Positions 29,262 through 46,308 of a stretch of DNA of 51,277 nt are shown piece by piece. Positions within the stretch are counted from its first letter, which is position 1, and each line of letters opens with the position of its first letter. Source of the DNA: Promethearchaeota archaeon (GTDB lineage: Archaea > Asgardarchaeota > Lokiarchaeia > Sigyniarchaeales > SOKP01); NCBI GenBank assembly GCA_048940445.1, contig JBHLON010000025.1, forward strand, positions 1 through 51,277. Reading direction: 5' to 3'. Made by a program: the position numbers and the translations under genes. The notes under the pieces are model-generated. The model was not told the DNA's origin. It ran no database searches and saw nothing but the letters and a program-made list of their open reading frames with translations.

Positions 29262-30338
29262 ATGCAAGAATTTGAAATTGTAAGGAATTTATCAGTACGA
29301 ATTGTAGATCATCCCGAAGAAATCCTAAAATATATCCATATAGGAATAAGTATTCCAGTATTACCCCAATTTCATAAATATATTGTTAGTGATATTAAAG
29401 AATACAACGCAAAATCTATATTACTCGAAGAGGAAATTGATACTCAAATATTCGGAAAACTAACTGATAATATAATAGGCCATACCCTTGTCTATGATGA
29501 TGGAGGAGAAGTACTTTTCTTTGGATTTTTTAATGTATATGACCATGATCCAAAAAAAATTGAGTACTTAGTGGATCAGGTCATTAACTATGCTAAAGAG
29601 AATGATTTTAGCATAATTCGAGGCCCAATTAATGTACCGACTGTGATCTTTGGATGGGGTTTTATGGTTGAGGGAAGTCGAAAGGATTTATTTATTGGTT
29701 CACCTATTAATCCACCTATATATCAGCAAATATTCAGAGAAAAAGGGTTTATTGATAAGTTTCAAGAAGATAGATATTGGATGCCCGCTTTAAAGATGGA
29801 TCCCCATAACAATCCAGCACTAGTTAAGAAAGGAGTGGATTTTTCAGATTATGAATTCTCCAATCCAGGAAGAGAAGGACTAATGGCGATAAAAGATGAG
29901 TACATTGAGCTTCATGCGACTTACATGCCTCATTCAGCTCGTATTACTCCCAAAGCATCCAAAAATTTCGATAACATAGTTGATTTTACCCATTCGTTTG
30001 GTGCGGACTGGATGATGTGGATTGTAAGACACAAAGAAACGGGACAGATGTCTGGGTGTGGTTATATTATACCCGACGTGTTTCATTTGAATCGGAAAGG
30101 ACAGTTGGATTCAGTTAGCTTCCATGATTGGGTAGTACATCCCGATCATCGTAGAAAGTATCTGTCAATGTTAATGTACGGAGAAACCTCTTTACTAGCC
30201 AAAGATCATAAAACTCCTCACTACATTAATCGGGGTTCTTGGCCTGTAGGAGCAGATAATCTTGCCAATGCAAATGCAGCTATGAAAATGGGAGGAAAAA
30301 AAGATAGAAGCCATATTATCTTAGAAAAAACACTATAA
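29262..30338 (+). CDS. Tandem GNAT-fold protein of the YghO / bacterial ceramide synthase-like family
   Basis: FFGFF, RGPIN, GFxVEG, NPPxY...GFxxxxxD and VHPDHRRK acyl-CoA-binding-like motif. Confidence 0.65.
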   Translation: MQEFEIVRNLSVRIVDHPEEILKYIHIGISIPVLPQFHKYIVSDIKEYNAKSILLEEEIDTQIFGKLTDNIIGHTLVYDDGGEVLFFGFFNVYDHDPKKIEYLVDQVINYAKENDFSIIRGPINVPTVIFGWGFMVEGSRKDLFIGSPINPPIYQQIFREKGFIDKFQEDRYWMPALKMDPHNNPALVKKGVDFSDYEFSNPGREGLMAIKDEYIELHATYMPHSARITPKASKNFDNIVDFTHSFGADWMMWIVRHKETGQMSGCGYIIPDVFHLNRKGQLDSVSFHDWVVHPDHRRKYLSMLMYGETSLLAKDHKTPHYINRGSWPVGADNLANANAAMKMGGKKDRSHIILEKTL

Positions 30339-30357
30339 AAAAATTTTTTTTCGTGGT

Positions 30358-30732
30358 TTATTTCTTTCTTATTTTTTTTTCCATAAGTTTAGTATAAATA
30401 GAATTTATTTTAGTATCGACTTGAGTTAAAAGAGAGCTTTTTTTTTCTAAATCCTCTTGTAATTTCCTTACTTCCTTAATATCTGTTTTAGGATGTAGAA
30501 ATTCGACAAGAAAGGGGAGGTACTCTAATAGTTCTTCCACTACTAGCTCGCATTGTTGATAAATTTCTCTACGGAGCACTATCTCATTTACTTTCTTTTC
30601 CATCACATCTCTGATTAGAGCTTTCATTCTGAGCAACCAATCGGCATCAACCACTATTCTCTTAATATCTTCTCGTATCTCTTGGATAGTCTTTTTTTCT
30701 AATGTCATTGATTTATTCATACTTGAATTCAT
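30358..30732 (-). CDS. Small helical / coiled-coil hypothetical protein, last gene of the membrane operon
   Basis: 124-aa ORF starting 3 nt after the stop of the 1238-aa gene. Confidence 0.65.
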   Translation of the reverse strand: MNSSMNKSMTLEKKTIQEIREDIKRIVVDADWLLRMKALIRDVMEKKVNEIVLRREIYQQCELVVEELLEYLPFLVEFLHPKTDIKEVRKLQEDLEKKSSLLTQVDTKINSIYTKLMEKKIRKK

Positions 30733-30735
30733 ATG

Positions 30736-33700
30736 CTAAATCCCCTCTACAGATGCATAATCCTTAAGATTACTATAAAAGTCTCGAAATGCATGATACA
30801 ATTTATTAAGATTAGACTCTAATAGCTTTCCATCAATGTGTACATTCTCACTCTTATAAATTAAATCTTTCAAAGCTTCTAATGTATAAGGAAAATTTCT
30901 TAAATCTGAAAGTAGTGAAATAAGATCCTCAATATTTTCTCTCGTAATTGCATTTTGAGAGCCATAATAAGTTCGATACATACGTGCTAAGAATCGAGTG
31001 ATAAATTGTTTTGCATATTTGTGAAAGTTCAAGAAATCTTGGTTAGAAAGTGCTTTATGCATATAAAATAGTTCCCTTCTTACATCGGTTCCTAAGCTTT
31101 TATCTAATGCGTATTTAAGTTTTTGTTCTTTCTTTTGAGATACTACAGTTTTTGCGAAATCTTTAACAGAATCCGTTTCTTTCGATATAATAGCAACATC
31201 AATCCTACTAGTGTGTTTCGATTCATAATAGTCTGCTAAAGCTAAATCATACTGAGGGCCCACTGCATATGATGTTGCCATCTGTTCTCCTCCACCTGCA
31301 GTTCGGGGATGACTGGGAATGAGATATTTATGGTCAATCATAATTCCAAAGATCTGATTTCGTATGTTTCGCATCATAGTTCGGTCCTGACCAAATTTAA
31401 GTGAAATTGCTGGACCAAGAATATCCATTAATATCTTTAGTATTTTTTTCTTGAACAATCCCCCTACTTTTTCAACTGTCTTTATTGTTTCAAAAAAGGT
31501 CATAATTTCATCAAGAAAGATGACATATTCTCTAAAATTATTTTCAAATAATGTTGGTTTTGCTTGGGCAAGAATACGATGTTCACTATACCTTATGTCA
31601 TACCCTTGAGAACCCATATGCTTGACTATATCATGATATTCCATAGAGGGGAGTTGTGAAATATCTTCACCATCAATTGTTATAGGAAACGATTGGTAGA
31701 TGTCATCCCGTTTCATAAGCGCTCGATTGTTTATTAAATTTTTAAGATAGGGAATCTGATAAGTCTCTTTTCTTCGAGCATTATAATATCCTGTTCCATG
31801 GAGCTCATTTAAGTTCATATGGTTTGCTAAAACACTTATGTCTTGTTGATTGGTTCCTCTAAAAGTGACAATATTATGAAAAAAATTGAATACGTTAGAA
31901 TGTAAGTAATGGATATTATTACACAAGCAAATAAATCCAAAATTCTTCTGTAGTAAAGGTAAAAAAAACTTATTGATCTTACTATATTCCCCATTAGCAT
32001 CCAAAAATTTTTCTTGGAAGATAATATCTATGTGAGGGATAAAAAGAAATTTGGAATAAAATCGTGTGTTATGGTAAATATAATGTATAAATTTAGAGAG
32101 AATCACAAACACATAAAAGCATTGGCGTGTATAATCGGGATATTCGGATATATCGACGATAATTGTATGAGGTTTGGTTATGAATTCATGAGCTTTTGTT
32201 CTTTTTTCCTCTGATTGTGTAGCGTCATAAAAGAATGCCAAATCTTCAGCATCAAAATATTCAAGGTAGGAGAGAAGCGAATCACCATTAGAATCTTTTT
32301 CAAATGATGGTCTATTGTTAAACTCAACTTTCATAGCTTTAATATCGAGTCCTTGATGCTGGATCACAAAACTGCGAAACTTATTCATAATATATTTATT
32401 TGCCTTGATTGTAAATTGATAGGCATCATACATATATTGTAAATAGTGAAGATTATCGGGATCGTTCGGTACCATTTCAGAATGAATAGGATCTAAATTA
32501 AATGTCTTACCCAATTTGAAATAAAGTATATCACTGGCATATCTTGTTCCCTTAAAATATGTCAGTAATTTTCCCCAATTACCAGATATATCGAATACAA
32601 CAGAGGGGAGGTTCATTTTGATAAGTTCAGCCACTATTTTCATTGCTAAGAATTCACGCCTTTCATTTGTGCCGCAAGTAATGAGAAAAGAACGCAATTG
32701 TCTCAATAATAATCCTGCTTCTATTTCTAATTTACTTATTTCCGTATTGATGGTTTTCCCGAACACAACCTCATTCTTTAGATTCGTGGGAGTATTAAAT
32801 TCCGCAGCCACTTGCACTTGAGTACCTTTCTTTAATTCATCAGCTAAATAAATAATATACAAGAGCGTAGTGCCTTGAAAATAGACCTTTGCTAAATACG
32901 ATCCATTATATCGCAGGGAAGTATTTTTTAGGAACTCACATATCACTCCTGAACGCAATTTCATTTTTGAGAGAGGAGTAAGTGTATAGCTATTGGCATT
33001 AATATGGAAAACTTTTGAGATGGTATCTGCTTTTGTAGGCAACTCCTCTTCAATTTTTCGTATAGCATCTGTAGTAATATCCCTTATGGGAACAGAATAT
33101 GATGTTGAAATTAATATCGTAGCTTTCCACATCCCAGCCCTACGTCCTAACCACTTTTTTTCGTCAATCTCTCTCGTGACTTCTCTTGAAAGCTTATACT
33201 TTACATTATCTTTTAAATAATCTTGAGCTTGTTTCACAAATTCTAAATAGTGAACTGGAGTAGAAATGACTGTATAAGTAAAAGATAAGTCATGAGCAAT
33301 CACTCCCGATAAAAATTTCGAAAATGAACAATAAGGAGGGTCTATTACTTCAGTGACATTATATATTTGAATGCCCGTAATTTCGTGACTTCGAATATAA
33401 GCATAATAAATCTGGGGATTTTTTTTAGAGGTTAAAAACTGAATGTCATGAAAAGGTTGGATGATTACTACATTCTCATACCCAAAAATATTATTTTTAA
33501 TAAAATAAAATATAAAATCCCGTAGATACAGAAAGAATTGAGCAAATCCTATTATTATCATCAAAGGTAGTATAGAAAAGGGAGGGACTCCTAACATGAT
33601 AAATAATATAATAAAAAATGTATTTAATCCCAATGTAAATACTCCTTTTACCAGATTATGTTGTTTACTTCCCACCATAAGAGAGTTCTCTTCTGTATCG

Positions 33701-34452
33701 TATGTCTCTCTTTCATCAATTTTTTTATGGAACATTACACAACGAAACGCGTTAATTAATTCATGTCCTTTATATTGCTTAGTTTGAAAATGGTGGAAAT
33801 TTGCTGAGAACCCTGAAATTACTTGGCTTCCCACTGATTTTAATTGATCGTGCAAGAATTTTATTTTGCTCTCATTTAGCCATCCTGATACTGACCGAAA
33901 TACGGTAATAAAAATAGTGTCTCCTGTGGGACGATGCACTACTTGATAAGAGAATGAAGTTTTTGTTTCTAAAACTTGAAAAATGTTTATAAAATATCTC
34001 ATAGTAGCGTGAACAGTTTCGGGCTGTATTTCGATTTCAAAGATTTGAAGTCCCACAGTAAGCGAATCTACTTTATTAGTGTAAAACAAGGTTTCATTTT
34101 CATCCTTTATCATCCAAAAGACTAATTCTTTAAAGGGATTAAATTCTAGAGGGCGAAATAATTTTGCCAGTTGGAAGAAGGATTCATGGAATATAAGTAT
34201 AAATACAATGATAAAAGTTATTGCTAATCCTAATGATAAATATACATTATGACTCAAGAAATACATACATACCGCAAGTGTTATACCCATCCCAATTAAG
34301 AAGGTTGCCTTCAAGATTGAGAGCGTAAGATTGGTGTCTATATAAGAAGGATGAATATCAAAAATTGTCTTGAATTCATATTTGGATTCACTATTTTTCG
34401 ATTTACCTTCTTTCTCCGATTCAGTTAAAAAATGCGTATAAAACTCTCCCAT
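30736..34452 (-). CDS. Large membrane protein with a VirB4/HerA/FtsK-like P-loop fold domain, apparently catalytically degenerate
   Basis: Two TM hairpins. Fold landmarks: VVFG..., SFLITCGTNERRE (Walker A position), PSVVFDISGNW, FNLDP, TIIVDIS, KFLFIPHID (Walker B position), FGFICLCNN and IVTFR...DISVLANHMNL. Confidence 0.65.
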   Translation of the reverse strand: MGEFYTHFLTESEKEGKSKNSESKYEFKTIFDIHPSYIDTNLTLSILKATFLIGMGITLAVCMYFLSHNVYLSLGLAITFIIVFILIFHESFFQLAKLFRPLEFNPFKELVFWMIKDENETLFYTNKVDSLTVGLQIFEIEIQPETVHATMRYFINIFQVLETKTSFSYQVVHRPTGDTIFITVFRSVSGWLNESKIKFLHDQLKSVGSQVISGFSANFHHFQTKQYKGHELINAFRCVMFHKKIDERETYDTEENSLMVGSKQHNLVKGVFTLGLNTFFIILFIMLGVPPFSILPLMIIIGFAQFFLYLRDFIFYFIKNNIFGYENVVIIQPFHDIQFLTSKKNPQIYYAYIRSHEITGIQIYNVTEVIDPPYCSFSKFLSGVIAHDLSFTYTVISTPVHYLEFVKQAQDYLKDNVKYKLSREVTREIDEKKWLGRRAGMWKATILISTSYSVPIRDITTDAIRKIEEELPTKADTISKVFHINANSYTLTPLSKMKLRSGVICEFLKNTSLRYNGSYLAKVYFQGTTLLYIIYLADELKKGTQVQVAAEFNTPTNLKNEVVFGKTINTEISKLEIEAGLLLRQLRSFLITCGTNERREFLAMKIVAELIKMNLPSVVFDISGNWGKLLTYFKGTRYASDILYFKLGKTFNLDPIHSEMVPNDPDNLHYLQYMYDAYQFTIKANKYIMNKFRSFVIQHQGLDIKAMKVEFNNRPSFEKDSNGDSLLSYLEYFDAEDLAFFYDATQSEEKRTKAHEFITKPHTIIVDISEYPDYTRQCFYVFVILSKFIHYIYHNTRFYSKFLFIPHIDIIFQEKFLDANGEYSKINKFFLPLLQKNFGFICLCNNIHYLHSNVFNFFHNIVTFRGTNQQDISVLANHMNLNELHGTGYYNARRKETYQIPYLKNLINNRALMKRDDIYQSFPITIDGEDISQLPSMEYHDIVKHMGSQGYDIRYSEHRILAQAKPTLFENNFREYVIFLDEIMTFFETIKTVEKVGGLFKKKILKILMDILGPAISLKFGQDRTMMRNIRNQIFGIMIDHKYLIPSHPRTAGGGEQMATSYAVGPQYDLALADYYESKHTSRIDVAIISKETDSVKDFAKTVVSQKKEQKLKYALDKSLGTDVRRELFYMHKALSNQDFLNFHKYAKQFITRFLARMYRTYYGSQNAITRENIEDLISLLSDLRNFPYTLEALKDLIYKSENVHIDGKLLESNLNKLYHAFRDFYSNLKDYASVEGI

Positions 34453-34453
34453 G

Positions 34454-35287
34454 TTAGGATTCTCCTGATTTCAATAATTTTTTATATACAATTAAAAGTA
34501 CAATATCGCTTCCAGAGAATAATAGTAAATAGAAGCTAACTACCATAGTAATGTTGGGAAATAAAATCATCTCGTAAATGATGTTTATCCCCATAAACAT
34601 AAAAAATGCCATCACACCTAAAATGATATATTTTAAGTTTGATACCTCAGATATCTGATATATAAACGAATCCTGGATCCGCCCTTTTTTCTTAAGGGAT
34701 GTGATTGTGGTCTTCAATTTTTTCAAATATAATGCTTCCTCAAAGCATTCTTTATCAAAACCTTGCTCTAAGGATTTTTGTAGGTGTATTTCTTTCTGGT
34801 GAATATTATGTATTAACAATTGTTTTGATCGACTAGATTCGTGGTTTTTACCTTTAGTAGCCATCGTCATATATAAATTCAAATCAGTATCTCCGTGTAT
34901 AAAATCATTCCCTAAAATACCAAAGACATTGGGAACGTCAAGTTCTTGTAGCTCAAAATATAGGGAAAAAAGTTTTTTAATATGATCATATGGAAGTTCT
35001 CCTCGAAGTTTAAGGAATATAAGTTCTGTCACTTTCAAGCGTTCAATTATAGAAGCCATGAATACAGGACTCTTAATCAGGTTCTGAAAAACCATATTGA
35101 TGAATTCCATATACTGATACAAATGCTCATTTTCCTTCTTTTTTCGAGCCCGAATTCCTAAATTAGCTCCAATCTCATCAATTACGTTACTTAAAAGAAT
35201 GAATCCTACTACTGCTATTTTCTTATAATTTTGGGTTTGTTTGCAAAGATGGATAAGATGTTTTAGTTTTGAATCGACAATCTTCAT
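34454..35287 (-). CDS. Hypothetical protein with a helical N-terminal domain and two C-terminal TM helices
   Basis: 277 aa; overlaps the upstream gene by 4 nt; 1-nt gap to the next gene. Confidence 0.7.
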   Translation of the reverse strand: MKIVDSKLKHLIHLCKQTQNYKKIAVVGFILLSNVIDEIGANLGIRARKKKENEHLYQYMEFINMVFQNLIKSPVFMASIIERLKVTELIFLKLRGELPYDHIKKLFSLYFELQELDVPNVFGILGNDFIHGDTDLNLYMTMATKGKNHESSRSKQLLIHNIHQKEIHLQKSLEQGFDKECFEEALYLKKLKTTITSLKKKGRIQDSFIYQISEVSNLKYIILGVMAFFMFMGINIIYEMILFPNITMVVSFYLLLFSGSDIVLLIVYKKLLKSGES

Positions 35288-36006
35288 CCTTTTGTCACAC
35301 TCCTTTGATTTTTAATCGATTTTCTTGTTGTCTTATTTATTGAATCATTTAAAGGGAAATTACGAGTTAACTCTAGTTCCTCTTCTCGGATCAATTTATC
35401 GAAATCAATTGGTTCTTGAATGGTTTTTATATACGCATTCACATCCTCTTGTGGAGACGAAGAGGAATGCTCCATTGTAATTGATAATTTATAGTAGAAA
35501 ATAGAATAAGGAAATACTAGGATAAAACCTATTCCCTGCAGCAGATAACCCCACTCTATACTATAACTAAAAATGAGATTGAGATTTGGCTCATAAAATG
35601 ATATCCAGGGGATGTAATATTGATAAGGTATCAGATAAAAAACAGGATATATTACAAGAAAGAATCCCATGAGAAGAATGGAAAAGATAAGCACATAAGA
35701 GAATATTTTTCGTGGACTACGGAATACTACTCCAATCATGGAAATTATTAATGAAACAAAGAACACGATAATCATGGTAAGAGGTATTGGTTTTGCGACA
35801 GGAGTATAAAGTTCATTAAATACGGAACCTTCTCCAAAAATGGAATACCAGTTAAAAATAGGATTATATCCCCAATAGACTACGAGATTCCCACTCTGAT
35901 CTTTTGCCTGGAACAAATACCAATCAAAAAATAATGAGACTCCGGATATTATTATTCCAACAAGGAGCATAATTCGAAGTACATTTGATAATTTCATATC
36001 ATACAC
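35284..36006 (-). CDS. Four-TM membrane protein
   Basis: Four hydrophobic helices, an aromatic-rich loop after TM1 (SLFFDWY...WGY...NWY) and a charged C-terminal tail. Confidence 0.75.
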   Translation of the reverse strand: MYDMKLSNVLRIMLLVGIIISGVSLFFDWYLFQAKDQSGNLVVYWGYNPIFNWYSIFGEGSVFNELYTPVAKPIPLTMIIVFFVSLIISMIGVVFRSPRKIFSYVLIFSILLMGFFLVIYPVFYLIPYQYYIPWISFYEPNLNLIFSYSIEWGYLLQGIGFILVFPYSIFYYKLSITMEHSSSSPQEDVNAYIKTIQEPIDFDKLIREEELELTRNFPLNDSINKTTRKSIKNQRSVTKG

Positions 36007-36007
36007 C

Positions 36008-37957
36008 TTATTTTGCTAGGTATTCATCTAATTTTTCATCATATGTATCCTTGTTTTTATTTGACTCAAAGAGATTTTCTATCAGAGTATTTGAAGAGTT
36101 CTCAATTGGTGTGCTAAGCACTTGTTTCGTTCGATGTTCTTCGATTTGATTTAAGAGTTTATATTCTGAGGTTTTTCCAAAGCACTCATATCCAAATTGA
36201 AGCATAAGCTCATCTACAAGATCTCGATAAATTATTTCCAAACTAGCATCATCTAATTCTACTGGTTTTTGATAAGAAGGAATAGCAAATTGGTTTCTTA
36301 AGTCTTTTCGCATATTTTTAAATTTATAAAATAAATATCCTACCATTATTCCATAGACTCCTAGCATCGTATAACTCAGTCCAATAAATGGCAGTAATAA
36401 GGTTGGTATTTGAGTAAGGGCAATCATAATTGTGAGCCCCCCAAATCCCGCAGGAATAAGCGAATAATACATAAGTTTTTTTTGAAATTCTTGATTAGTG
36501 TGCTGGTAAGTATCCTCCGTTTGTTTAGCATCATTATACTCTTCAATATATCCATGTTTCTGTTCTAAAAATTCCAATAAATCAGTTATTTGAGAAGTTG
36601 AAATGTAATGGATATTATAAGTTCTCTGATACGCAAAAGGGATGGACTTCTCCACATATTTAACTTCATTATTAGAAATGAGGATGGGATCACAATATAC
36701 AGATATAATTTCTCTAGCAGAAAAAAGTGTAGACTCATTTTTTACTACTTGGTCCTGGACCATATCTATTTTAGTCATTAAAAAATTCTGTATATACTGA
36801 AAGAAATTACCGTTAATTGCCATCTCCTCAGAAATTATCTCTTGAGCATGGATTAAGTGGGACATATAAGATTTTATCAAGAAGTTGTGTTCTGCTTCTT
36901 GCTGATATTCAATAATATCTTCAGAGATTAATAATATATCCTCTATCTCAGCTATTTTAATAGGAGTGATTAATAGAATTTGTTGTTCAGGTTTGAACAA
37001 ATACATTTTAAAGAATAAAAGATCAATCTCCTGAAGGAAAGTTTCTTGAATAATTTGGGTTGGAACAGAATAAAAACCCTCAGATCCTACTTCCTTAATT
37101 ATTTGATCATAAATTGTAATAGGCTCCTCTTTAGCATGCTTCTCCAGATCTTGCATTTTTGGGTACTTCTCTTGATCATGGAGTTTTTCTACTTCTATAA
37201 TATCGGATTCATGAGGTAATTCGAAAATGCTTCTAATATGTTTAACTTTCTTTTTAGATAGTTCCTTTTCAATAAATACTTCATCCTCTATAGTTGCGTT
37301 ATCTTCTTCAATAGTTTCTATTTGTTCTTTTTGCGCTACTTCTGCTTTTAGAAACCGTTCTTGATAGGAGAACTGATCATTCTCCTCCGTTGATTTTGAC
37401 TTAATATCCTGTGAGACTAGGGCACTTTCGCTTTGTTCTTCATTTTTCACTTCTTTAACCGTTTTTATATTTAATTTTAATTGTGGAGTGTTTATAGCTT
37501 CGTAATCATTTTTAAGCCCTAAATACTCCCGTGCAGAGAGGATAAATTTATTTGCAGTTTCTATCCCGATCCCCCTAACACGGGATAGTATTTTTGGAGT
37601 AGAAAATGCAATTTTATTTATGGTAGTGTATCCAGCGTCCCATAACTTTCGTTTATGTGTAGGACTTACACCGTTGACCTTAGTTAAATCCTCATACAAT
37701 ATTTTCTCTAGTATAGCATCATTCTTAATTGGAAAATCTGAAGATTGCTCAGTAAGCGCTCGAGAGATTTCCTCAAACTTGTTCTTCCATTCAATATTAC
37801 TGTCTAATTCTGACTTTCTTAACCCCTTTTTAGATAACTCAACAGCCTGATCTATATCTCCGGATTCCAATGCCTGTTGAGTCATATCATAAAGATAACT
37901 CAACTCCCATTTCTTTTCCAATGATTCTTGCATACTGATAAGAAGTTTGCTCCTCAT
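36008..37957 (-). CDS. Membrane-anchored helix-hairpin-helix (HhH) DNA-binding protein
   Basis: Tandem HhH DLTKVNGVSP...DAGYTT...SRVRGIGIETANK (RadA/Rad51-N-like), an acidic linker, a globular domain and two TM helices near the C-terminus. True start may be ATG 37933 (leaderless spacing from the TATA box). Confidence 0.75.
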   Translation of the reverse strand: MRSKLLISMQESLEKKWELSYLYDMTQQALESGDIDQAVELSKKGLRKSELDSNIEWKNKFEEISRALTEQSSDFPIKNDAILEKILYEDLTKVNGVSPTHKRKLWDAGYTTINKIAFSTPKILSRVRGIGIETANKFILSAREYLGLKNDYEAINTPQLKLNIKTVKEVKNEEQSESALVSQDIKSKSTEENDQFSYQERFLKAEVAQKEQIETIEEDNATIEDEVFIEKELSKKKVKHIRSIFELPHESDIIEVEKLHDQEKYPKMQDLEKHAKEEPITIYDQIIKEVGSEGFYSVPTQIIQETFLQEIDLLFFKMYLFKPEQQILLITPIKIAEIEDILLISEDIIEYQQEAEHNFLIKSYMSHLIHAQEIISEEMAINGNFFQYIQNFLMTKIDMVQDQVVKNESTLFSAREIISVYCDPILISNNEVKYVEKSIPFAYQRTYNIHYISTSQITDLLEFLEQKHGYIEEYNDAKQTEDTYQHTNQEFQKKLMYYSLIPAGFGGLTIMIALTQIPTLLLPFIGLSYTMLGVYGIMVGYLFYKFKNMRKDLRNQFAIPSYQKPVELDDASLEIIYRDLVDELMLQFGYECFGKTSEYKLLNQIEEHRTKQVLSTPIENSSNTLIENLFESNKNKDTYDEKLDEYLAK

Positions 37958-38001: not shown

Positions 38002-38016
38002 TTTTTTCTTTAAATA
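38002..38016 (+). promoter_or_regulatory. TTTTTTC-TTTAAATA promoter of the Hel308-like helicase
   Basis: TATA 38009-38016 lies 26 nt before ATG 38043. Confidence 0.6.
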
Positions 38017-38042: not shown

Positions 38043-40562
38043 ATGACACTTCATAATTTTACGAGCGATGGTCCTAAAGAATTGGTATTACAAGATGAGG
38101 AAATATTCACCTATATAGCTGATAAGCGGATACTTAGAGTATTATTTGAGCAAAAGATTTTTGCATTACGGGACATTCAAAAAAAAGCTATCGAAAAAGG
38201 GTTGTTCTTTCGAAAATCATTTTTAATTTGTTCCCCATCAGGAAGTGGAAAAACTTTAATCGGAGAAATATGTGCTTTTCATAATATATTCAATAATTAT
38301 GGAAAATCTATTTATTTGGTTCCCTTCAAAGCATTGGCTACCGAGAAATTCTATTATTTCAAAAAATATTATGAACGATTTAAGGTTAAGATTATACTCT
38401 CAATTGGAGATTATGATGTAGATGATTCTAAATTAGAAAAGGGAGATTTAATTATCACTACATATGAAAAATGCGATTCTATTTTGAGAAATTTCTATGA
38501 TAAGGCATGGATCCATGATATTTCCACAATTATTATAGACGAAATTCATATTGTAGGAGATTCGGATCGAGGTCCGAGATTGGAATCTCTAATTGTAAGA
38601 TTAAACGAATTTTTGCATAATCCTCAAATAATTGGACTTTCCGCTACGATTGCGAATCCCAATTTTTTCAATGAATGGCTTACTTCACTAGGAAATAATA
38701 CAACTCTTATTCAATCCGATGATCGTCCTGTTCCTCTTCATTATCAAATTATAACTACTCAAAATAAGGATTCAACAATTAAAAAAATAGTGAAGCACAC
38801 TCTAGACCAAAAGGGCCAAGTATTGATATTTTTAAATAAACGAATATCTACACAACAATCTTCATTTTTGCTGAAAAATGTAGTTAAGAACCATATTGTA
38901 CAGGACGACTTAAATAAATGTAAAATATTCAAAGAAAAATTGAGTGAGATTAAAGGAGGGCACAAAGATATAAAAAGTATTGTAAATTATGGACTTGCCT
39001 TTCACCATGCGGGGTTGTTGCCAAAAGAAAGAAGATTAGTAGAGAATGGTTTTCGTAAAAAAGTAATAAAGGTAATATGTGCTACCACCACATTAAGTGC
39101 AGGTATTAATACACCATCGCGAGTAGTAGTGCTTCGAGACTTTAAAAAATATATCACTTCGGGGCATAATATCAAAAACTTTTCTGGGTATGTAGAAAAT
39201 GGAGATGGGTTTTATTATTTCAAACCCTTTTCTGCAAACCAAGTATTTCAGATGCTGGGAAGAGCAGGTAGACCAGGACTAGATTCTATAGGTTATGGAA
39301 TTATCTTAGTAAATAATGTAGAAGAAAGAAATTGGGTTGAGGAAAACTATTTTCAGAGAAAAGGTGCTGATAAGAAATTAATACCTATATATAGTAATCT
39401 GGTCTCGGGATTAAATAAAGTGAACATCCTTAAGGAGCAGGTGCTTTTGAGGATTTATGAAGAAGGTGCAATCACTCTTGACCAATTAAAAAGTTTTTTT
39501 GAGCGAACATATTTTTGGTTCTTTATTAAGCAAAAAATGAAGGCGCAAGAGATCCCAATCGAGCAAATCTTAATGATCCAAGAGATAACTCCTGAAAATA
39601 TATTGAAATTACATGCTGATCCTAAAAGATTAGCCCAATTAAAGCATAAAAATTATCAGATAAAAATAACTGAAGTTGCAAGTTCAATCATTGGGGGGGT
39701 TTTAAAGACCGAATTTGGTATCTATACGTGTGAATTTAGCATTGACCATGGAATTCGATGTTCATGTGGGTTCAAAAATGGTATTTCTGATAATTTTTCA
39801 AACAACGAATTTGCATTCGAATTTTGTGATCATATTACCTATTTTTTAAATTATTTGATCGAAATTTCTGATACCAATTTTAGAAAATATATAAGAGACA
39901 TTATTCCTAAATCGATCAAGAACCAGTATATCCTGAACTATTTATTTGAAAACGGATTAATCGAACCCAATCCCAATAATACAATCAGGTGCAGTCAATT
40001 TGGGAAATTAATTATTCGTTTGTATTTATATCCAACGTCAGGAGTTTTGATTCGATATAAATTGGAAAATAATCAGCTTCACACCGCCCAAGATATTATT
40101 AGGGAAGCCTATGACATACTCCGAGTAGAATTTAAAGTTAGGGATTATAAAATGCTTCAGCCAATTTTGGAATGGACAGATGAAGTACCTATTGAAGAAA
40201 TTTTAGAGCGCTATCACATTTTAGCTGGAGACTTATATACAATCCGAGATAATTTAGAGCGAATTATCACTTTTATCGGAATTATTGCTATTCATCTAAG
40301 CGAAAATGATATTGAACTTCAAGATATGATGACTCAAATTGCAGAGATGGCCGAGACTTTAAAGATTCGAGTACACTATGGAATAAAAGAGGAGTTATTT
40401 GATTTGATATTGCGTTTGGATAACGTAGCACGAGTTAGAGCCAGAATTATCTATGATGCGGGATATCACACTGCAGCTCAAGTACGTAGAAAGAATCCTT
40501 ATATATTACACCGGAAAACGGGATTAGGCGTTAATCTCTGTAAAAAAATTATAAATAAATAG
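38043..40562 (+). CDS. Ski2/Hel308-like SF2 DNA helicase with an inserted SWIM-type zinc finger
   Basis: PSGSGKT, VPFKALA, TYEK, DEIH, RGPRLE, SAT, FHHAGL, TTTLSAGIN, QMLGRAGRPG and C-terminal HhH (VARVRAR.IYDAG). Insert CSC...CDH. Confidence 0.9.
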   Translation: MTLHNFTSDGPKELVLQDEEIFTYIADKRILRVLFEQKIFALRDIQKKAIEKGLFFRKSFLICSPSGSGKTLIGEICAFHNIFNNYGKSIYLVPFKALATEKFYYFKKYYERFKVKIILSIGDYDVDDSKLEKGDLIITTYEKCDSILRNFYDKAWIHDISTIIIDEIHIVGDSDRGPRLESLIVRLNEFLHNPQIIGLSATIANPNFFNEWLTSLGNNTTLIQSDDRPVPLHYQIITTQNKDSTIKKIVKHTLDQKGQVLIFLNKRISTQQSSFLLKNVVKNHIVQDDLNKCKIFKEKLSEIKGGHKDIKSIVNYGLAFHHAGLLPKERRLVENGFRKKVIKVICATTTLSAGINTPSRVVVLRDFKKYITSGHNIKNFSGYVENGDGFYYFKPFSANQVFQMLGRAGRPGLDSIGYGIILVNNVEERNWVEENYFQRKGADKKLIPIYSNLVSGLNKVNILKEQVLLRIYEEGAITLDQLKSFFERTYFWFFIKQKMKAQEIPIEQILMIQEITPENILKLHADPKRLAQLKHKNYQIKITEVASSIIGGVLKTEFGIYTCEFSIDHGIRCSCGFKNGISDNFSNNEFAFEFCDHITYFLNYLIEISDTNFRKYIRDIIPKSIKNQYILNYLFENGLIEPNPNNTIRCSQFGKLIIRLYLYPTSGVLIRYKLENNQLHTAQDIIREAYDILRVEFKVRDYKMLQPILEWTDEVPIEEILERYHILAGDLYTIRDNLERIITFIGIIAIHLSENDIELQDMMTQIAEMAETLKIRVHYGIKEELFDLILRLDNVARVRARIIYDAGYHTAAQVRRKNPYILHRKTGLGVNLCKKIINK

Positions 40563-41850: not shown

Positions 41851-43077
41851 ATGATTACTCAAAAAGCTTTTCCCTATTATATTTTGCAACATAAGGAATT
41901 ATTTCCGGATACTATTGATGAATACCTGCTTAAGCTCTTTCCCTTAGTGGATTTGAATATTGAAAATAGAGTATGTTATCCTTTTGAGTTGGAGACTCGA
42001 TTAGGTAACACAAAAGTTAACCCTTTCTTACGAATTGCGCAGCCAAATGATGCAGAAACTATTGCTGAGGCTTCTAAGGAAGTTTATGAGTCTACATATC
42101 CATATAAAGAAATGGAAGACGCAGAGTATATAAGAAAAATGATAAAAAGTCCAGAAAATCACTTCATTCTTTTTGAGACTGAAACTGGAGAAAATGCAGG
42201 ATGTTTTCGGTGTGCACTAGATTATGAGCATAGAAAAGGTTATATGGGAGGCTTTATGATCCGCAAGAAATTTCAAGGAAAACTAGATGTAATACGAGCA
42301 ATTATGGGCTCTTACATCTGGATGTGGAATTCTTTCAAAGATGAGATTCTAGTATGGTATTGTGAGAATCGAACTGCTCATGCTTCCTCACAATACATCA
42401 CAGCGATTTGTGGCATTAATACAGTGGCCATCTTTCCTAATAAAGATATTTTTTTTGGTGATATTGAGTCTGATGTGATGGGGATAATCTATGTAGAAGA
42501 AGTATTAAGGAGGTTAAGAGTGCCGCAAATCCCGTGTTTTATCAAAGCTGTAGAAAAACCCTATTTATATTCAGATAGATTATACAATCTTGGTAAATAT
42601 CAAATTAGAAGTCCAAAAATTAGTTTAGATGAATCAAGGATTAATGAAGTTAAGAGGATATTTGCATGCAAAGTCTCTACGGATAAATATGGATATGAAT
42701 ATTATAGGTTTATTATAAGGTATTCTGGCTCTTATTTTGAATTTTTGCATAACTCTTATATTCAAAACCTTGAAAAAGCAAAATTTCATGTGGAATCTTT
42801 GGAAGAATTATATGTGTTTATTCAGGAGTTAAAAAAAGTAATGGATCAACTTAACGTTAGATATTGTGAGGTTTTCATCTCAGCTTATCGTCCTAAGCAT
42901 CAACAGTTATTCTATAACTTCGGGTTTCGTCCTAGGGGATACGTCCCATGTTGGAACTATGATATTAGAAATAATACTTTTGAAGATAGTGTTATCTTTA
43001 ATTACTTTGAAGGTGAGATCACCAACATTGATTTGTTACCCCAAGGATATAATTTGTTAAATAGTATCGAGATATAA
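41851..43077 (+). CDS. Tandem GNAT-fold protein
   Basis: LRIAQPNDAE, YPY, IRKKFQGK, ENRTAHxxSQ and GFRPRGYVP. Confidence 0.65.
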   Translation: MITQKAFPYYILQHKELFPDTIDEYLLKLFPLVDLNIENRVCYPFELETRLGNTKVNPFLRIAQPNDAETIAEASKEVYESTYPYKEMEDAEYIRKMIKSPENHFILFETETGENAGCFRCALDYEHRKGYMGGFMIRKKFQGKLDVIRAIMGSYIWMWNSFKDEILVWYCENRTAHASSQYITAICGINTVAIFPNKDIFFGDIESDVMGIIYVEEVLRRLRVPQIPCFIKAVEKPYLYSDRLYNLGKYQIRSPKISLDESRINEVKRIFACKVSTDKYGYEYYRFIIRYSGSYFEFLHNSYIQNLEKAKFHVESLEELYVFIQELKKVMDQLNVRYCEVFISAYRPKHQQLFYNFGFRPRGYVPCWNYDIRNNTFEDSVIFNYFEGEITNIDLLPQGYNLLNSIEI

Positions 43078-43109: not shown

Positions 43110-43613
43110 TCATTTGTAATTAAATAAATAGTAATGTGTTTTTTTGCTAATTAAAATGAGCTTCTTTTCTTTTACAAATTTTCTAATCAAAATTTTAAGC
43201 TCCATTGGAGGAATATGGCATTCTTGGGCCATTAATTCCATCATATAAAAAGGAAATTCTTTATATTTCGAGGACAATTCTTTTAGCAAGTCAATAAATA
43301 ACGATTCATATTCATCACCAGCTCGGGAGAGATCTTTTTTAGCTTTAATTTTGGAACATATCGAAAATTCGTTTTCAGTAGAAAATTGAGATGCCCCTAA
43401 GGCATTCTGCAGCTCTTTAACCCGTTTAATAGCATTTGAAATACCATAAACTCTTTCTCCATTATTTAGAATTAGTATAACTTTATATGTTTTTCTACAA
43501 CGAAGGCATTTTTTCGTCTTTTGTGTTGTTTTTGCGTAGAGATACTGATGACATCTAGTACAAATGAAAATTACATACGGATTGATATCTTTTTTCCAGG
43601 TTGCATCTTCCAT
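43110..43613 (-). CDS. Zinc-ribbon (DUF1922-like) protein with a putative C-terminal winged helix
   Basis: YVIFICTRC...TKKCLRC; ATG 43613 lies 2 nt after the Hef stop. Confidence 0.7.
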   Translation of the reverse strand: MEDATWKKDINPYVIFICTRCHQYLYAKTTQKTKKCLRCRKTYKVILILNNGERVYGISNAIKRVKELQNALGASQFSTENEFSICSKIKAKKDLSRAGDEYESLFIDLLKELSSKYKEFPFYMMELMAQECHIPPMELKILIRKFVKEKKLILISKKTHYYLFNYK

Positions 43614-43615
43614 GG

Positions 43616-45730
43616 TTACCCCTTTTTTAAATTTTGATCTAATATACTTCGTAATATAAACCATAATTCTTCCTCATCTTCGATGGGAATGATTTTGTAA
43701 TGCTTCTCTTCAGCAATCTGTCGTGCTTTCTGTTTGATTACCCGTAATTCTCCATTTATACCTTCTTGAAAGTTAATAAAATCCAAAATGATTATAATGA
43801 GTTGAAATTTATGTTGATAAGCAGTGATAAACTTGGTTATCTTATCTTGAAGCGATTCTGTAAAAGAATCTATTGGGAAAATCTGTATTAAAACCTTACC
43901 ATGAATTACGATATGCTCAGATTGATTATTTAAGGTGTAATCTATTCCTTCTCTCTGAAGCTTTTTGCGAAGGCCGAACTTTACTGGAAGGTTAATATTT
44001 AATTTAACTAATTCTGGCTTTGGCATTTCCTTTATGGCGTTACTTACAAATTTAAGCAATCCCTTTTTGTTTTTTTGTATGTTATTAATCTGAAAAGTCG
44101 GTTCAGATATCTCTTTATCACCATCGAAAGTTTTCTCTTGTGTCTTAAGTTCAATATTCATTCTTTTCAGTTTATTCATTACGATTCGTAAATAAATATC
44201 ATCATGTGTACCTATACAATACAAAATGATTACTTCACCTTTACGCTGTCGAGCAGTTCTCCCTTTTCTTTGGATAAATCGTATCTCTGAGACCACAACA
44301 TCATAAAAGATTACAAGATCACACTCTGTTATATCTAATCCTTCTTCCCCGACATTTGTTGACACTAATACATTATACTTCCCTTGTTTGAACTCATCAA
44401 GAATTTCCAACTGCTTTTTTTGAGTTAGCCCTTTATCATCTTTAGACTTGGTAGATTGTCCTACAAAACGAGAGGCTGCAATAAATTCCTCTTTGTTTAA
44501 TTTTATCGTTATATTCTTTACAGAGTCTCGGAACTTTACAAATACCAAAATTCGTGAATCTGGGATTGCTTTAAGCTGGTTAAGAATGATTTTTTCCAAT
44601 ACTTTATATTTGGGATGAATCAATCTTTCGGGGGAGTGTTCATAATGCTTTAAAAGCTCTAAGACTACTTGATGCAGGCGAAGGTCTGAACCGAGAATTT
44701 TTATTGCTTTAGAACTATTCTGTTTCTTTGCATCCTCTTTTACCTTGAGCAAATAGGTTAAAAGTATATCCAATCCCTGTTGTTCAATTAAATCCACCAT
44801 ATGAAAAAGGATAAGTGCTTGAGCATTAACTGAGAGAGCAGAATAAACTCCTGTCTTATCTCCATTTGAGTTCACAAGTGATATTAACTCTGAATTTAAC
44901 TTCAACAAATCGTTACGGAACACTTTTTCTATTAATCTATCTGTCTTTCTCTCTAAAAATCCTAAAGATGATAGATACTGCAAACGTTCTTCTAAGAGTT
45001 GTTGGATGACTAAACAAGCATCTTTCATGAGGGTAGTCAGATTCACTCCAACTTTAAAAATATTCATAGGTTTAATATAAGACTTCACATCCCGATCTGT
45101 TCTAATACGAGTATGGATATTAGTAAGTGGAATATGTAAGAGTTCGCAAAGAGTCTTAATTTTAGTTTTGGATGCCCCTGGGGATGCAGTCAGTCCTAAA
45201 ATATTACCATCAGGATTCTGATCAAGATATTCATCAGCAATTAGTGGATAAGGATAATCTCCAGATGCATGGTGCGCCTCATCAAATACTATTAAGCAAG
45301 TGGTATCGAGGGAATATCTTTTCTTCACTAAATCATTCCGTAAGGTCTGAGGGGTATATAAGATAATTTGATGCTCATGAAATAATTGGCTACGTTCTTC
45401 GGGATTGACTCTTCCTGTTAAAATGGTAAAGCTTTCTTCAGATAAAGTCAGAAAATTTTTAAAAGATTCATACTGCTGGTTGATTAGAGGACGTGTCGGA
45501 GCTAATATGATAATCTTACTTTTCTCTGGATAGAGTTCTAAAGTATAAGCGGCAACCAATATTGCAATGATGGTCTTTCCAAGACCAGTAGGTAATACTA
45601 CAAGCGAATTATGATTAACACATTTCTTTGCAATCTCCACTTGATATTGACGGAATTCGATATGTTCTTTTCGAATATATTGATCCTTTAAATTATTGAG
45701 TTTCGAGTCAGAGGAACTTATAAAACTCAC
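43616..45730 (-). CDS. hef: Hef/FANCM-like SF2 helicase with a degenerate C-terminal ERCC4-like domain
   Basis: RQYQ, LPTGLGKT, APTRPL, TPQ, DEAHH, LTASPG, HPK, FVGQ, EEGLDI and IQRKGRTAR. The C-terminal about 130 aa lack GDY/ERK. Confidence 0.88.
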   Translation of the reverse strand: MSFISSSDSKLNNLKDQYIRKEHIEFRQYQVEIAKKCVNHNSLVVLPTGLGKTIIAILVAAYTLELYPEKSKIIILAPTRPLINQQYESFKNFLTLSEESFTILTGRVNPEERSQLFHEHQIILYTPQTLRNDLVKKRYSLDTTCLIVFDEAHHASGDYPYPLIADEYLDQNPDGNILGLTASPGASKTKIKTLCELLHIPLTNIHTRIRTDRDVKSYIKPMNIFKVGVNLTTLMKDACLVIQQLLEERLQYLSSLGFLERKTDRLIEKVFRNDLLKLNSELISLVNSNGDKTGVYSALSVNAQALILFHMVDLIEQQGLDILLTYLLKVKEDAKKQNSSKAIKILGSDLRLHQVVLELLKHYEHSPERLIHPKYKVLEKIILNQLKAIPDSRILVFVKFRDSVKNITIKLNKEEFIAASRFVGQSTKSKDDKGLTQKKQLEILDEFKQGKYNVLVSTNVGEEGLDITECDLVIFYDVVVSEIRFIQRKGRTARQRKGEVIILYCIGTHDDIYLRIVMNKLKRMNIELKTQEKTFDGDKEISEPTFQINNIQKNKKGLLKFVSNAIKEMPKPELVKLNINLPVKFGLRKKLQREGIDYTLNNQSEHIVIHGKVLIQIFPIDSFTESLQDKITKFITAYQHKFQLIIIILDFINFQEGINGELRVIKQKARQIAEEKHYKIIPIEDEEELWFILRSILDQNLKKG

Positions 45731-46308
45731 CTTTCCTGATTGATTATGATACTATAATTCGGAAATTCGACCTTTGTTATAGGCTTATTCCCACGATTAT
45801 ATGCAAGAATCTTCGTTCCCAACTCGATTGCTAACTTTGTAGGGTAAATTAAGCCATTTCCATGATGTTCAAATAAGTAAGGATGAATTTTGCAAAGGTT
45901 TTTTACTTTATGTATCAATTCCGAACCATTATGACTGAGATCAAACCCTTTTCCAATGTTGATATGCTGAAAGTAGTAGATTACATCGCTAAGTATATTA
46001 ATCTGCTCTGATGTAATGTAAATTTCATTTGATTCATTATTGAAGTTAATGTCCTTCGAGTATGGTTCCAATGCCAAATAGAGAGTAGTATTTTTCCGTT
46101 TTTTATATAAGCAATAACCTTCTAAACTTGATAAGAATAGATTTTGAAACCGAAAAAAGATGTCTAATAATTCTTCCCCTTCTCTGGGGAGTAACCTAAA
46201 CCCTTGACACAACTTACTGAAATTAAAATGGGAGTCTGGATGATCTTTGAATTGTTCTAAAATCTGAATAAGCTGAAGCAGTAATTTAATTTTATCGCTA
46301 GGGGGCAT
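45727..46308 (-). CDS. Hypothetical protein (possible tandem winged-helix), coupled to hef
   Basis: 193 aa; ATGA overlap with the hef start. Confidence 0.65.
   Translation of the reverse strand: MPPSDKIKLLLQLIQILEQFKDHPDSHFNFSKLCQGFRLLPREGEELLDIFFRFQNLFLSSLEGYCLYKKRKNTTLYLALEPYSKDINFNNESNEIYITSEQINILSDVIYYFQHINIGKGFDLSHNGSELIHKVKNLCKIHPYLFEHHGNGLIYPTKLAIELGTKILAYNRGNKPITKVEFPNYSIIINQER

Follow-up and report, generated by a model that had tools for sequence, protein, structure and literature searches.

Which kind of machine is encoded by five tightly packed genes, most of them for membrane proteins, that face a Hel308-type helicase gene in an Asgard archaeon? The genes are found on the minus strand of contig JBHLON010000025.1 (Promethearchaeota archaeon, Lokiarchaeia, assembly GCA_048940445.1), and the window analysed here is the whole stretch of 51,277 nucleotides (nt) from that contig. 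Their open reading frames (ORFs) of 649, 240, 277, 1238 and 124 amino acids (aa), numbered here as genes 1 to 5, are separated by +1, -4, +1 and +3 nt in the ORF list, exactly as stated in the original prediction, which had been made from the letters of the window and had called the operon one of unknown function. It had also placed transmembrane (TM) helices in four of the five proteins, and this is borne out by a hydropathy scan, in which TM segments are present in all but the 124-aa protein. The operon and the facing helicase together probably constitute a DNA-handling machine at the cell membrane, undescribed and so far restricted to Asgard archaea, whose largest protein has the fold of VirB4 without its ATPase motifs.

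The gene 4 protein carries most of the argument. Relatives of VirB4 are the hallmark ATPases of type IV secretion systems (T4SS) and of the archaeal Ced DNA importer, and a VirB4/HerA-fold subunit had been foreseen in this operon. An AlphaFold2 model of residues 39-1238 (predicted local distance difference test, pLDDT, 78.5) agrees with this, since it matches TrwK/VirB4 of R388 over both domains (Foldseek E 5e-14) and is aligned with TrwK in VIA at Z 26-27 over 560-626 residues, model residues 55-916 corresponding to TrwK residues 6-807. The best structural match, for the N-terminal and the P-loop domains, is VirB3-VirB4 of T4SS (TrwM/TrwK, R388; PDB 7o42, 8rtd, 8rtb), and the TM hairpin that stands ahead of the N-terminal domain in VirB3-VirB4 fusions occurs likewise in the gene 4 protein. 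When the P-loop domain alone is compared in VIA, HerA, DndH-C, the VirB4 C-terminal domain and TrwB tie at Z about 18-21. The range of the HerA matches is Z 15-21, but the N-terminal part of the protein follows VirB4 and not the HerA barrel; its TM-hairpin modules also resemble EccE of ESX-3 (Z 13.7). As modelled, the protein has the full VirB4 architecture, with N- and C-terminal domains, plus a winged helix. It differs from VirB4 in having two TM-hairpin modules instead of one, in the addition of the winged helix and of a helical extension of about 170 aa, and in a sequence identity of only about 10%. No Pfam or NCBIfam family matches it, Pfam VirB4 included; the profile of the 1238-aa family gave a single non-significant match among PDB sequences, to the HerA sensor region (E 1.3), and the C-terminal 300 aa alone gave none.

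The catalytic motifs of VirB4 are missing from this fold. At the Walker A position GK[ST] is gone, Arg and Glu having replaced Lys and Ser/Thr, and in the model merely two residues are left there between strand and helix; at the Walker B position the acidic pair of hhhhDE is absent. This is a property of the whole family: a profile search of 1.84 billion representatives produced 348 relatives, and none of the approximately 110 with at least 600 aa has a Walker A motif at the P-loop position, the one match to the Walker A pattern among them being an unrelated conserved KLGKT stretch. Judged by these sequences, the gene 4 protein is an ancient and conserved pseudo-ATPase in which ATP hydrolysis has been lost, and because the Walker A lysine and the Walker B acidic pair are missing it could not act as the motor of a T4SS. 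The comparison with a minimal T4SS-like apparatus made in the original prediction is not supported: besides the absence of motor motifs in the relatives of gene 4, no VirD4/TraG-type protein is found in the window, nor do PF02534 and PF12846 match anything in this 93%-complete genome. General scans of the window ORFs showed no relaxase family, and no VirB6 or VirB8 is recognisable, the 240-aa protein (about four TM segments) being without any family match.

The second line of evidence is the helicase. The gene across the spacer encodes a Hel308/Hjm-type enzyme (E 1.6e-86 to 2zj2), and this genome has no second gene of the Hel308 type. In a survey of 42 genomes from the genus, 29 contain the operon together with the helicase, seven contain neither, three have the operon only and three the helicase only (Fisher p = 4e-4, the related genomes not being independent of each other). 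In the genomes with several copies of the operon, G008 and G016, each copy has its own adjoining helicase (3/3 and 2/2, respectively). The Hel308-type helicase thus belongs to the module and has been inherited and duplicated with the operon. The facing position had been described correctly; what had been overlooked is this membership and, as shown below, a wider context of recombination genes. The divergent arrangement was also rightly seen, with a spacer of 85 base pairs (bp) from the annotated ATG of gene 1, although the true spacer is probably 109 bp, the start of gene 1 being most likely at Met9. Related to this, Hel308 has been reported as seemingly absent in 13 of 15 Lokiarchaeota genomes, which the authors attribute to incomplete genomes, and in the tree published in the same work the eukaryotic HELQ/POLQ helicases group with Asgard Hel308 sequences (PMC10946056). 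The patchy presence of the module's helicase is a possible explanation of that gap in Lokiarchaeota.

The operon itself is conserved. A homologue of the 1238-aa protein was found in 20 of the 24 genus relatives first sampled; at family level the count is 103 of 134 genomes, and for the sister family it is 11 of 14. About 20 loci fetched from the same genus preserve the order 649-240-277-1238, with the last four genes of the operon similarly tightly spaced. Gene 4 is followed by a gene 5 homologue in each of the 14 loci whose downstream side was inspected, the product measuring 106-134 aa in the short form and 287-304 aa in the long one. Because the same order recurs in these loci, the arrangement is not due to chance, and the loss of gene order in relatives that had been named as grounds for refuting the operon is not observed. 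The junction between genes 1 and 2 is wider in some other clades, and in locus L018 a gene for a 315-aa P-loop kinase-like protein stands between them (L018:4665-5612); this insertion means that gene 1 is separable from a tightly coupled core of four genes. The module occupies a conserved position amid housekeeping genes, with a guanine-cytosine content like that of its surroundings, and for these reasons it is not a mobile element. Its proteins are only 38-61% identical to those of the related locus L011, compared with 81-91% for the flanking genes, and some genomes have up to three paralogous copies of the operon. In genome G017, from the same genus, all that is left of the 1238-aa gene is an N-terminal fragment interrupted by a TAA (C17:129896-130438), and the helicase is reduced to a fragment of 196 aa, which looks like the decay of a whole module.

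Beyond these genomes, weak matches across the phylum are split or shorter forms of the 1238-aa family. In the split form, a protein of about 300 aa (TM hairpin and N-terminal-like domain) is followed by a pseudo-ATPase of 480-535 aa with a winged helix, and in family f31 the two halves are fused into a protein of about 785 aa. Long and short forms are homologous (hhalign probability 99.9%, E 9e-33), the winged helix of gene 4 aligning with the C-terminal winged helix of the short forms, one of which has a weak Pfam PadR match (E 3e-4). The Walker A lysine is missing in all split, short and fused forms, and all named relatives of the gene 4 family come from Asgard archaea. The features by which the wider family is defined are all present in the window: gene 4 combines a TM hairpin and a VirB4-N-terminal-like module with a P-loop domain that lacks the Walker A lysine and with a C-terminal winged helix, and a Hel308-type helicase is linked to it. 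Helicase or nuclease genes accompany the module in at least six Asgard families, in differing gene orders (Table 1) and sometimes within the operon, as in the three genera of family f31. The RadA genes linked to the operons are divergent spare copies, canonical RadA being encoded elsewhere in the same genomes. Across the phylum, the module appears to have been inherited vertically.

A DNA-binding subunit had also been foreseen in the operon, and this gains support from a helix-hairpin-helix (HhH) domain of the gene 1 protein found by Pfam (HHH_5, E 1.6e-9), which in structural matching is nearest to the RadA/Rad51 N-terminal domain (36-40% identity, root-mean-square deviation 0.7-0.8 Å) and is 35% identical to the genome's own RadA. 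Two full-length RadA genes occur in this genome (G000 C3:28535-29536 and C76:4637-5884); the second (415 aa), which has an acidic extension and, at the N-terminus, a CxxC motif resembling a zinc ribbon, is the nearer match to the HhH domain of gene 1. The rest of the gene 1 protein, modelled at pLDDT 70, includes an alpha/beta domain for which neither Foldseek nor a VIA-wide search, both run inside the long model, found a partner; a NYN-like identity considered for it was discarded, as no NYN or PIN is among the Pfam families listed for 34 members. The gene 2 protein has three strong TM segments by hydropathy and, by eye, an unscored fourth near aa 155-175. The loop between TM1 and TM2, which contains many aromatic residues and in most orthologues carries N-x-S/T sequons, is probably its sole part outside the cell, and the C-terminal tail is acidic and cytoplasmic. 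In the gene 3 protein, about 215 aa make up a helical domain in the cytoplasm and a TM hairpin forms the C-terminal part; the ESM Atlas gave no usable match for it. The gene 5 protein is small, soluble and helical.

Both transcription units share a promoter element. The annotated ATG of gene 1 abuts the end of the gene's own T-rich/TATA box. All 12 aligned homologues begin at a Met equivalent to Met9, which is invariant in the alignment, one of them a few residues earlier. Because of this invariant Met and of the position of the box, the gene 1 product is most likely a protein of 641 aa translated from a leaderless transcript. A box of the same design lies 22-28 nt before the gene 1 start in 12 of 13 homologous loci, paralogous copies included. 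When the pattern TTTT[CT][CT]TTTA[AT]A[AT]A was searched, five sites were found in the window against 0.5 expected, preceding the operon, the helicase and the genes for a 358-aa, a 408-aa and an M50-like protein, and 86 sites in the genome. The genes with the box at 21-31 nt from their ATG in the whole genome include two RPA-like genes and one FEN1/XPG paralog. The strict box precedes neither of the two RadA genes of this genome. At the other end of the operon, the oligo-T tract read just past the gene 5 stop codon is a possible archaeal terminator.

No named system had been recognised in the operon, and the searches point the same way. Among the five proteins, Pfam, NCBIfam, PADLOC and PHROGs recognised one family, the HhH domain, and nothing significant for the other four; in PADLOC the four membrane proteins and a short-form pseudo-ATPase went unmatched, and its matches to gene 5 are weak (E 0.018-0.035). 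A literature search returned no paper that links Asgard archaea with a VirB4-like system or describes this module. HerA-NurA, SIR2-HerA and DUF4297-HerA differ from it in that the gene 4 protein is ATP-dead and membrane-anchored and has no NurA, SIR2 or DUF4297 partner (Pfam-type scans found no NurA in the operon); ordinary DUF87/HerA genes occur elsewhere in the genome. Lacking their defining features, the module is not a member of T4SS, of HerA-NurA or of the PADLOC systems.

The closest parallel is Ced of the Sulfolobales (CedA, CedA1, CedA2, CedB, CedD and CedE), which is likewise chromosomal, archaeal and made up of few parts, all of them in the membrane, and which is tied to the response to DNA damage and to recombination (PMC11868833), as the module too may be. 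CedB and CedD each have TM helices and a partial VirB4 N-terminal domain (PMC11868833). When judged through VirB4 and that description, they resemble the TM-anchored gene 4 protein, but they are described as ATPases whereas gene 4 lacks the ATPase motifs, and the module differs further from Ced in its physical linkage to a Hel308-type helicase and to recombination genes. Bacterial competence offers a second parallel, in function only and with no homology detected. The competence apparatus (ComEA, ComEC, ComFA) comprises a membrane HhH DNA receptor, polytopic membrane proteins, the superfamily 2 (SF2) ATPase ComFA, which takes part in the uptake of single-stranded DNA during transformation, and dedicated single-stranded-DNA-binding proteins. 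The module shares with it a membrane-anchored HhH protein and polytopic proteins, although the HhH domain of gene 1 is predicted to be cytoplasmic and not extracellular.

The reading towards which we lean, without calling it probable, is that of a Ced-like dock or conduit for the import or exchange of DNA at the Asgard membrane, with the helicase as its motor. The gene 4 protein, a VirB4 descendant that has lost ATP hydrolysis, would form a cytoplasmic ring or scaffold under the membrane, anchored by its two TM hairpins, and its winged helix could contact DNA. At the inner membrane face, double-stranded DNA would be held by the 641-aa protein, by means of its RadA-like HhH2 domain; the membrane part would be completed by the 240-aa polytopic and 277-aa hairpin proteins, and the 124-aa protein would be a soluble adaptor. 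DNA would be moved by the divergent Hel308-type helicase and not by the dead ring, in parallel to ComFA. It would be taken from other cells, or exchanged with them, and handed to dedicated recombination enzymes, being coated and processed by the co-regulated RPA-like and FEN1-like proteins and by Hef.

Several points weigh against this proposal. The crossing of the membrane by DNA, and its direction, are suggested by analogy, and the contacts among the subunits are presumed. Nearly all the mass of the proteins lies on the cytoplasmic side, and what faces outwards is confined to short loops of the 240-aa protein; the operon has no pilus or adhesin gene, and among its proteins no channel of a known type was recognised. 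To our knowledge, neither T4SS nor Ced offers a precedent for a ring devoid of ATPase activity. Besides, conservation of the small membrane subunits between the distant Asgard versions is undetectable with hhalign: when the 240-, 277- and 649-aa families were compared with the membrane proteins of distant Asgard operons, the HhH domain was matched, and otherwise only a 598-aa protein in L024, weakly (E 0.0025). Finally, the linkage to repair genes would fit a purely intracellular role equally well.

A bolder form of the proposal, which is put forward here tentatively, would see in the module a domesticated, motor-dead VirB4 membrane scaffold, driven by a Hel308/HELQ-type helicase and wired to spare RadA paralogs, XPD, FEN1, Hef and RPA, that serves a form of prokaryotic sex in the lineage ancestral to eukaryotes. 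We know of no characterised archaeal DNA importers other than Ced and Ted of the Crenarchaeota, and the module brings Hel308 and spare RadA paralogs together with a domesticated scaffold of the conjugation type. If DNA is indeed moved between cells, the module would put gene exchange and recombination in the lineage that led to eukaryotes on a concrete molecular footing that can be tested, and it would further be an uncommon example of a secretion ATPase long retained as a non-catalytic part. Since relatives of the module are present in closed genomes of the same order, including one of 6.0 Mb in a single contig, genetic and cell-biological tests should become possible as cultures improve.

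Among the rival explanations, a possible but rather doubtful one does without transport and makes of the module a membrane-tethered platform for recombination and repair, which would anchor broken ends, stalled forks or homologous copies at the inner face and concentrate there Hel308, Hef, FEN1, RPA and spare RadA, the dead VirB4-like ring being a clamp or scaffold. The cytoplasmic position of the HhH2 domain, of the winged helix and of nearly all the remaining mass would suit it, as would a ring without ATP hydrolysis, the failure to recognise a channel-type protein in the operon and the nature of the associated enzymes, which are classic processors of forks and branched DNA. However, the VirB4 lineage is otherwise known from transport machines only, the toolkit is a spare and not a housekeeping one, which suggests a special DNA substrate, and it is not obvious what a polytopic subunit whose outer loop is probably glycosylated would do in tethering alone. 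Even as nothing more than a tether for DNA, the module would represent a repair centre of a new, membrane-bound kind.

That the complex serves membrane defence, sensing incoming viral or mobile DNA and recruiting helicase and nucleases in the manner of Zorya or Hachiman, with the dead ATPase as sensor or decoy, seems unlikely. The fast divergence of the operon proteins relative to their flanks and the paralogous copies are what would be expected from it, and HerA-type proteins occur in several defence systems. The SF2 core of the helicase matches the HamB models of PADLOC (E 6e-43), but at 145 bits it is far from the 294 bits obtained with Hjm/Hel308, and no PADLOC model exists for the membrane subunits or the pseudo-ATPase. 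The fixed position in a housekeeping context and the occurrence in most genomes of the family (103 of 134), with apparently vertical inheritance across the phylum, are unlike patchy defence islands, and RadA paralogs and RPA-like proteins are atypical defence parts.

Very improbable is an FtsK-like chromosome device that would keep DNA at the site of division, or place it there, or would resolve the products of recombination. FtsK/SpoIIIE share with gene 4 the order TM anchor, P-loop ring domain and C-terminal winged helix, and the module is linked to recombination genes, but the structural match to FtsK reaches only Z 9.9 compared with 20-27 for VirB4 and HerA, pumping would be impossible without the ATPase motifs, and about one quarter of the genus genomes, some of them 92-95% complete, are without the module, which is hardly compatible with a core division function. 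Least credible of all is a role that has nothing to do with DNA, for example in protein secretion or membrane remodelling, with coincidental repair neighbours, for although VirB4-type machines export proteins too and the N-terminal modules recall EccE of the ESX-3 protein secretion system, the complex itself contains HhH2 and winged-helix domains, its helicase/nuclease linkage recurs with differing gene orders from family to family, and its promoter box is common to DNA-metabolism genes.

Table 1. Genes, domains and promoter elements of the module, its neighbours and related Asgard loci; positions are those of the window unless a genome or locus is named
Feature	Position	Strand	Remarks
Gene 1	37957..36008	-	annotated ORF, 649 aa; probable start Met9 at 37933, giving 641 aa
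Gene 1, N-terminus		-	TPR-like, three helices
Gene 1, HhH2 domain	37511-37702	-	RadA-N-terminal-like; aa 86-149 in 649-aa numbering
Gene 1, linker	37121-37507	-	acidic, disordered
Gene 1, alpha/beta domain	36536-37114	-	no fold match
Gene 1, TM hairpin	36284-36520	-	C-proximal
Gene 1, cytoplasmic tail		-	conserved, QFGYECFGK motif
Gene 2	36006..35284	-	240 aa, GTG start
Gene 3	35287..34454	-	277 aa, 4-nt overlap with gene 2
Gene 4	34452..30736	-	1238 aa, membrane-anchored VirB4-like pseudo-ATPase (predicted)
Gene 4, TM hairpin 1	34156-34329	-	aa 42-99 (hydropathy)
Gene 4, alpha/beta module 1	33667-34155	-	
Gene 4, TM hairpin 2	33508-33657	-	aa 266-315 (hydropathy)
Gene 4, alpha/beta module 2	32923-33480	-	
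Gene 4, P-loop-fold domain	31588-32811	-	
Degenerate Walker A position	32653..32682	-	ITCGTNERRE; family consensus NGTxxxRE
Degenerate Walker B position	32026..32049	-	FLFIPHID; family consensus PHID
Gene 4, winged helix	31261-31452	-	
Gene 4, C-terminal extension	30739-31260	-	helical
Gene 5	30732..30358	-	124 aa
Oligo-T tract	30337..30343	-	just past gene 5 stop codon
Operon promoter box TTTTTCTTTATAAA	37957..37970	-	T-rich element immediately followed by TATA box; 23 nt before Met9
Helicase promoter box TTTTTCTTTAAATA	38003..38016	+	26 nt before helicase ATG
Hel308/Hjm-type SF2 helicase gene	38043..40562	+	839 aa, divergent to operon
408-aa neighbour	41851-43077		
Hef-like helicase operon	43110-46308	-	
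Large membrane protein	46365-48689	-	prenyltransferase-like
M50-like membrane peptidase	50488-51273	+	box 22 nt before ATG
Two RPA-like OB-fold genes and FEN1/XPG paralog	G000 C30 (about 52583-53506), C139 (11999-12700), C124 (2-1072) = L043, L045, L044		box, leaderless spacing
Related module, family f7	L050 (G168)		divergent Hel308-like helicase, small TM proteins, in-operon FEN1/XPG-like nuclease
Related module, family f10	L053 (G045)		Hel308-like helicase and prenyltransferase-like large TM protein in same operon
Related module, family f11	L048 (G046)		C-terminal end of Hel308-like helicase just upstream
Related module, family f19	L049 (G149)		adjoining Hef-like helicase
Related module, family f2	L057 (G171)		adjoining Hef-like helicase
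Related module, family f21	L052 (G157)		RadA paralog immediately upstream
Related modules, family f31, three genera	L054-L056		one overlapping operon: RadA paralog, XPD-like helicase, pseudo-ATPase, Hel308-like helicase, TM proteins, two small RadA-like proteins, FEN1-like nuclease

Some of the neighbouring genes are also worth recording. The Hef-like helicase operon of the window is fast-diverging too (48-55% identity to L011), and Hef-like helicases stand beside the pseudo-ATPase module in two other Asgard families (L049:4708-5925, L057:14634-16784). The window also encodes a large membrane protein with a prenyltransferase-like alpha/alpha-toroid domain, which is found again close to the module at L053:14783-17977 and L024:1124-4333; it could be a surface component of the system. 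In two sister-family genomes, homologues of the M50-like peptidase adjoin the 1238-aa homologue (L024:6021-6905, L057:7237-8016). A TFB-like gene proposed in L024 was unsupported by BLAST (E 5).

For the 408-aa neighbour the ESM Atlas points to a GNAT acetyltransferase. In loci from other genomes of the genus (L015, L017-L023, L025, L026) a ThiF/E1-like gene and a paralog of the 408-aa GNAT-like gene follow the operon and, where a genome has several copies, are co-duplicated with it, whereas in the clade of the window no ThiF-like gene follows the operon. Despite this duplication with the module, the 408-aa and ThiF-like genes are possibly passengers. NifH-like and nitrogenase-component-1-like genes come after the short-form module in two loci from two Asgard families (L048:3800-5904, L053:4507-8229), which probably reflects shared synteny rather than shared function.

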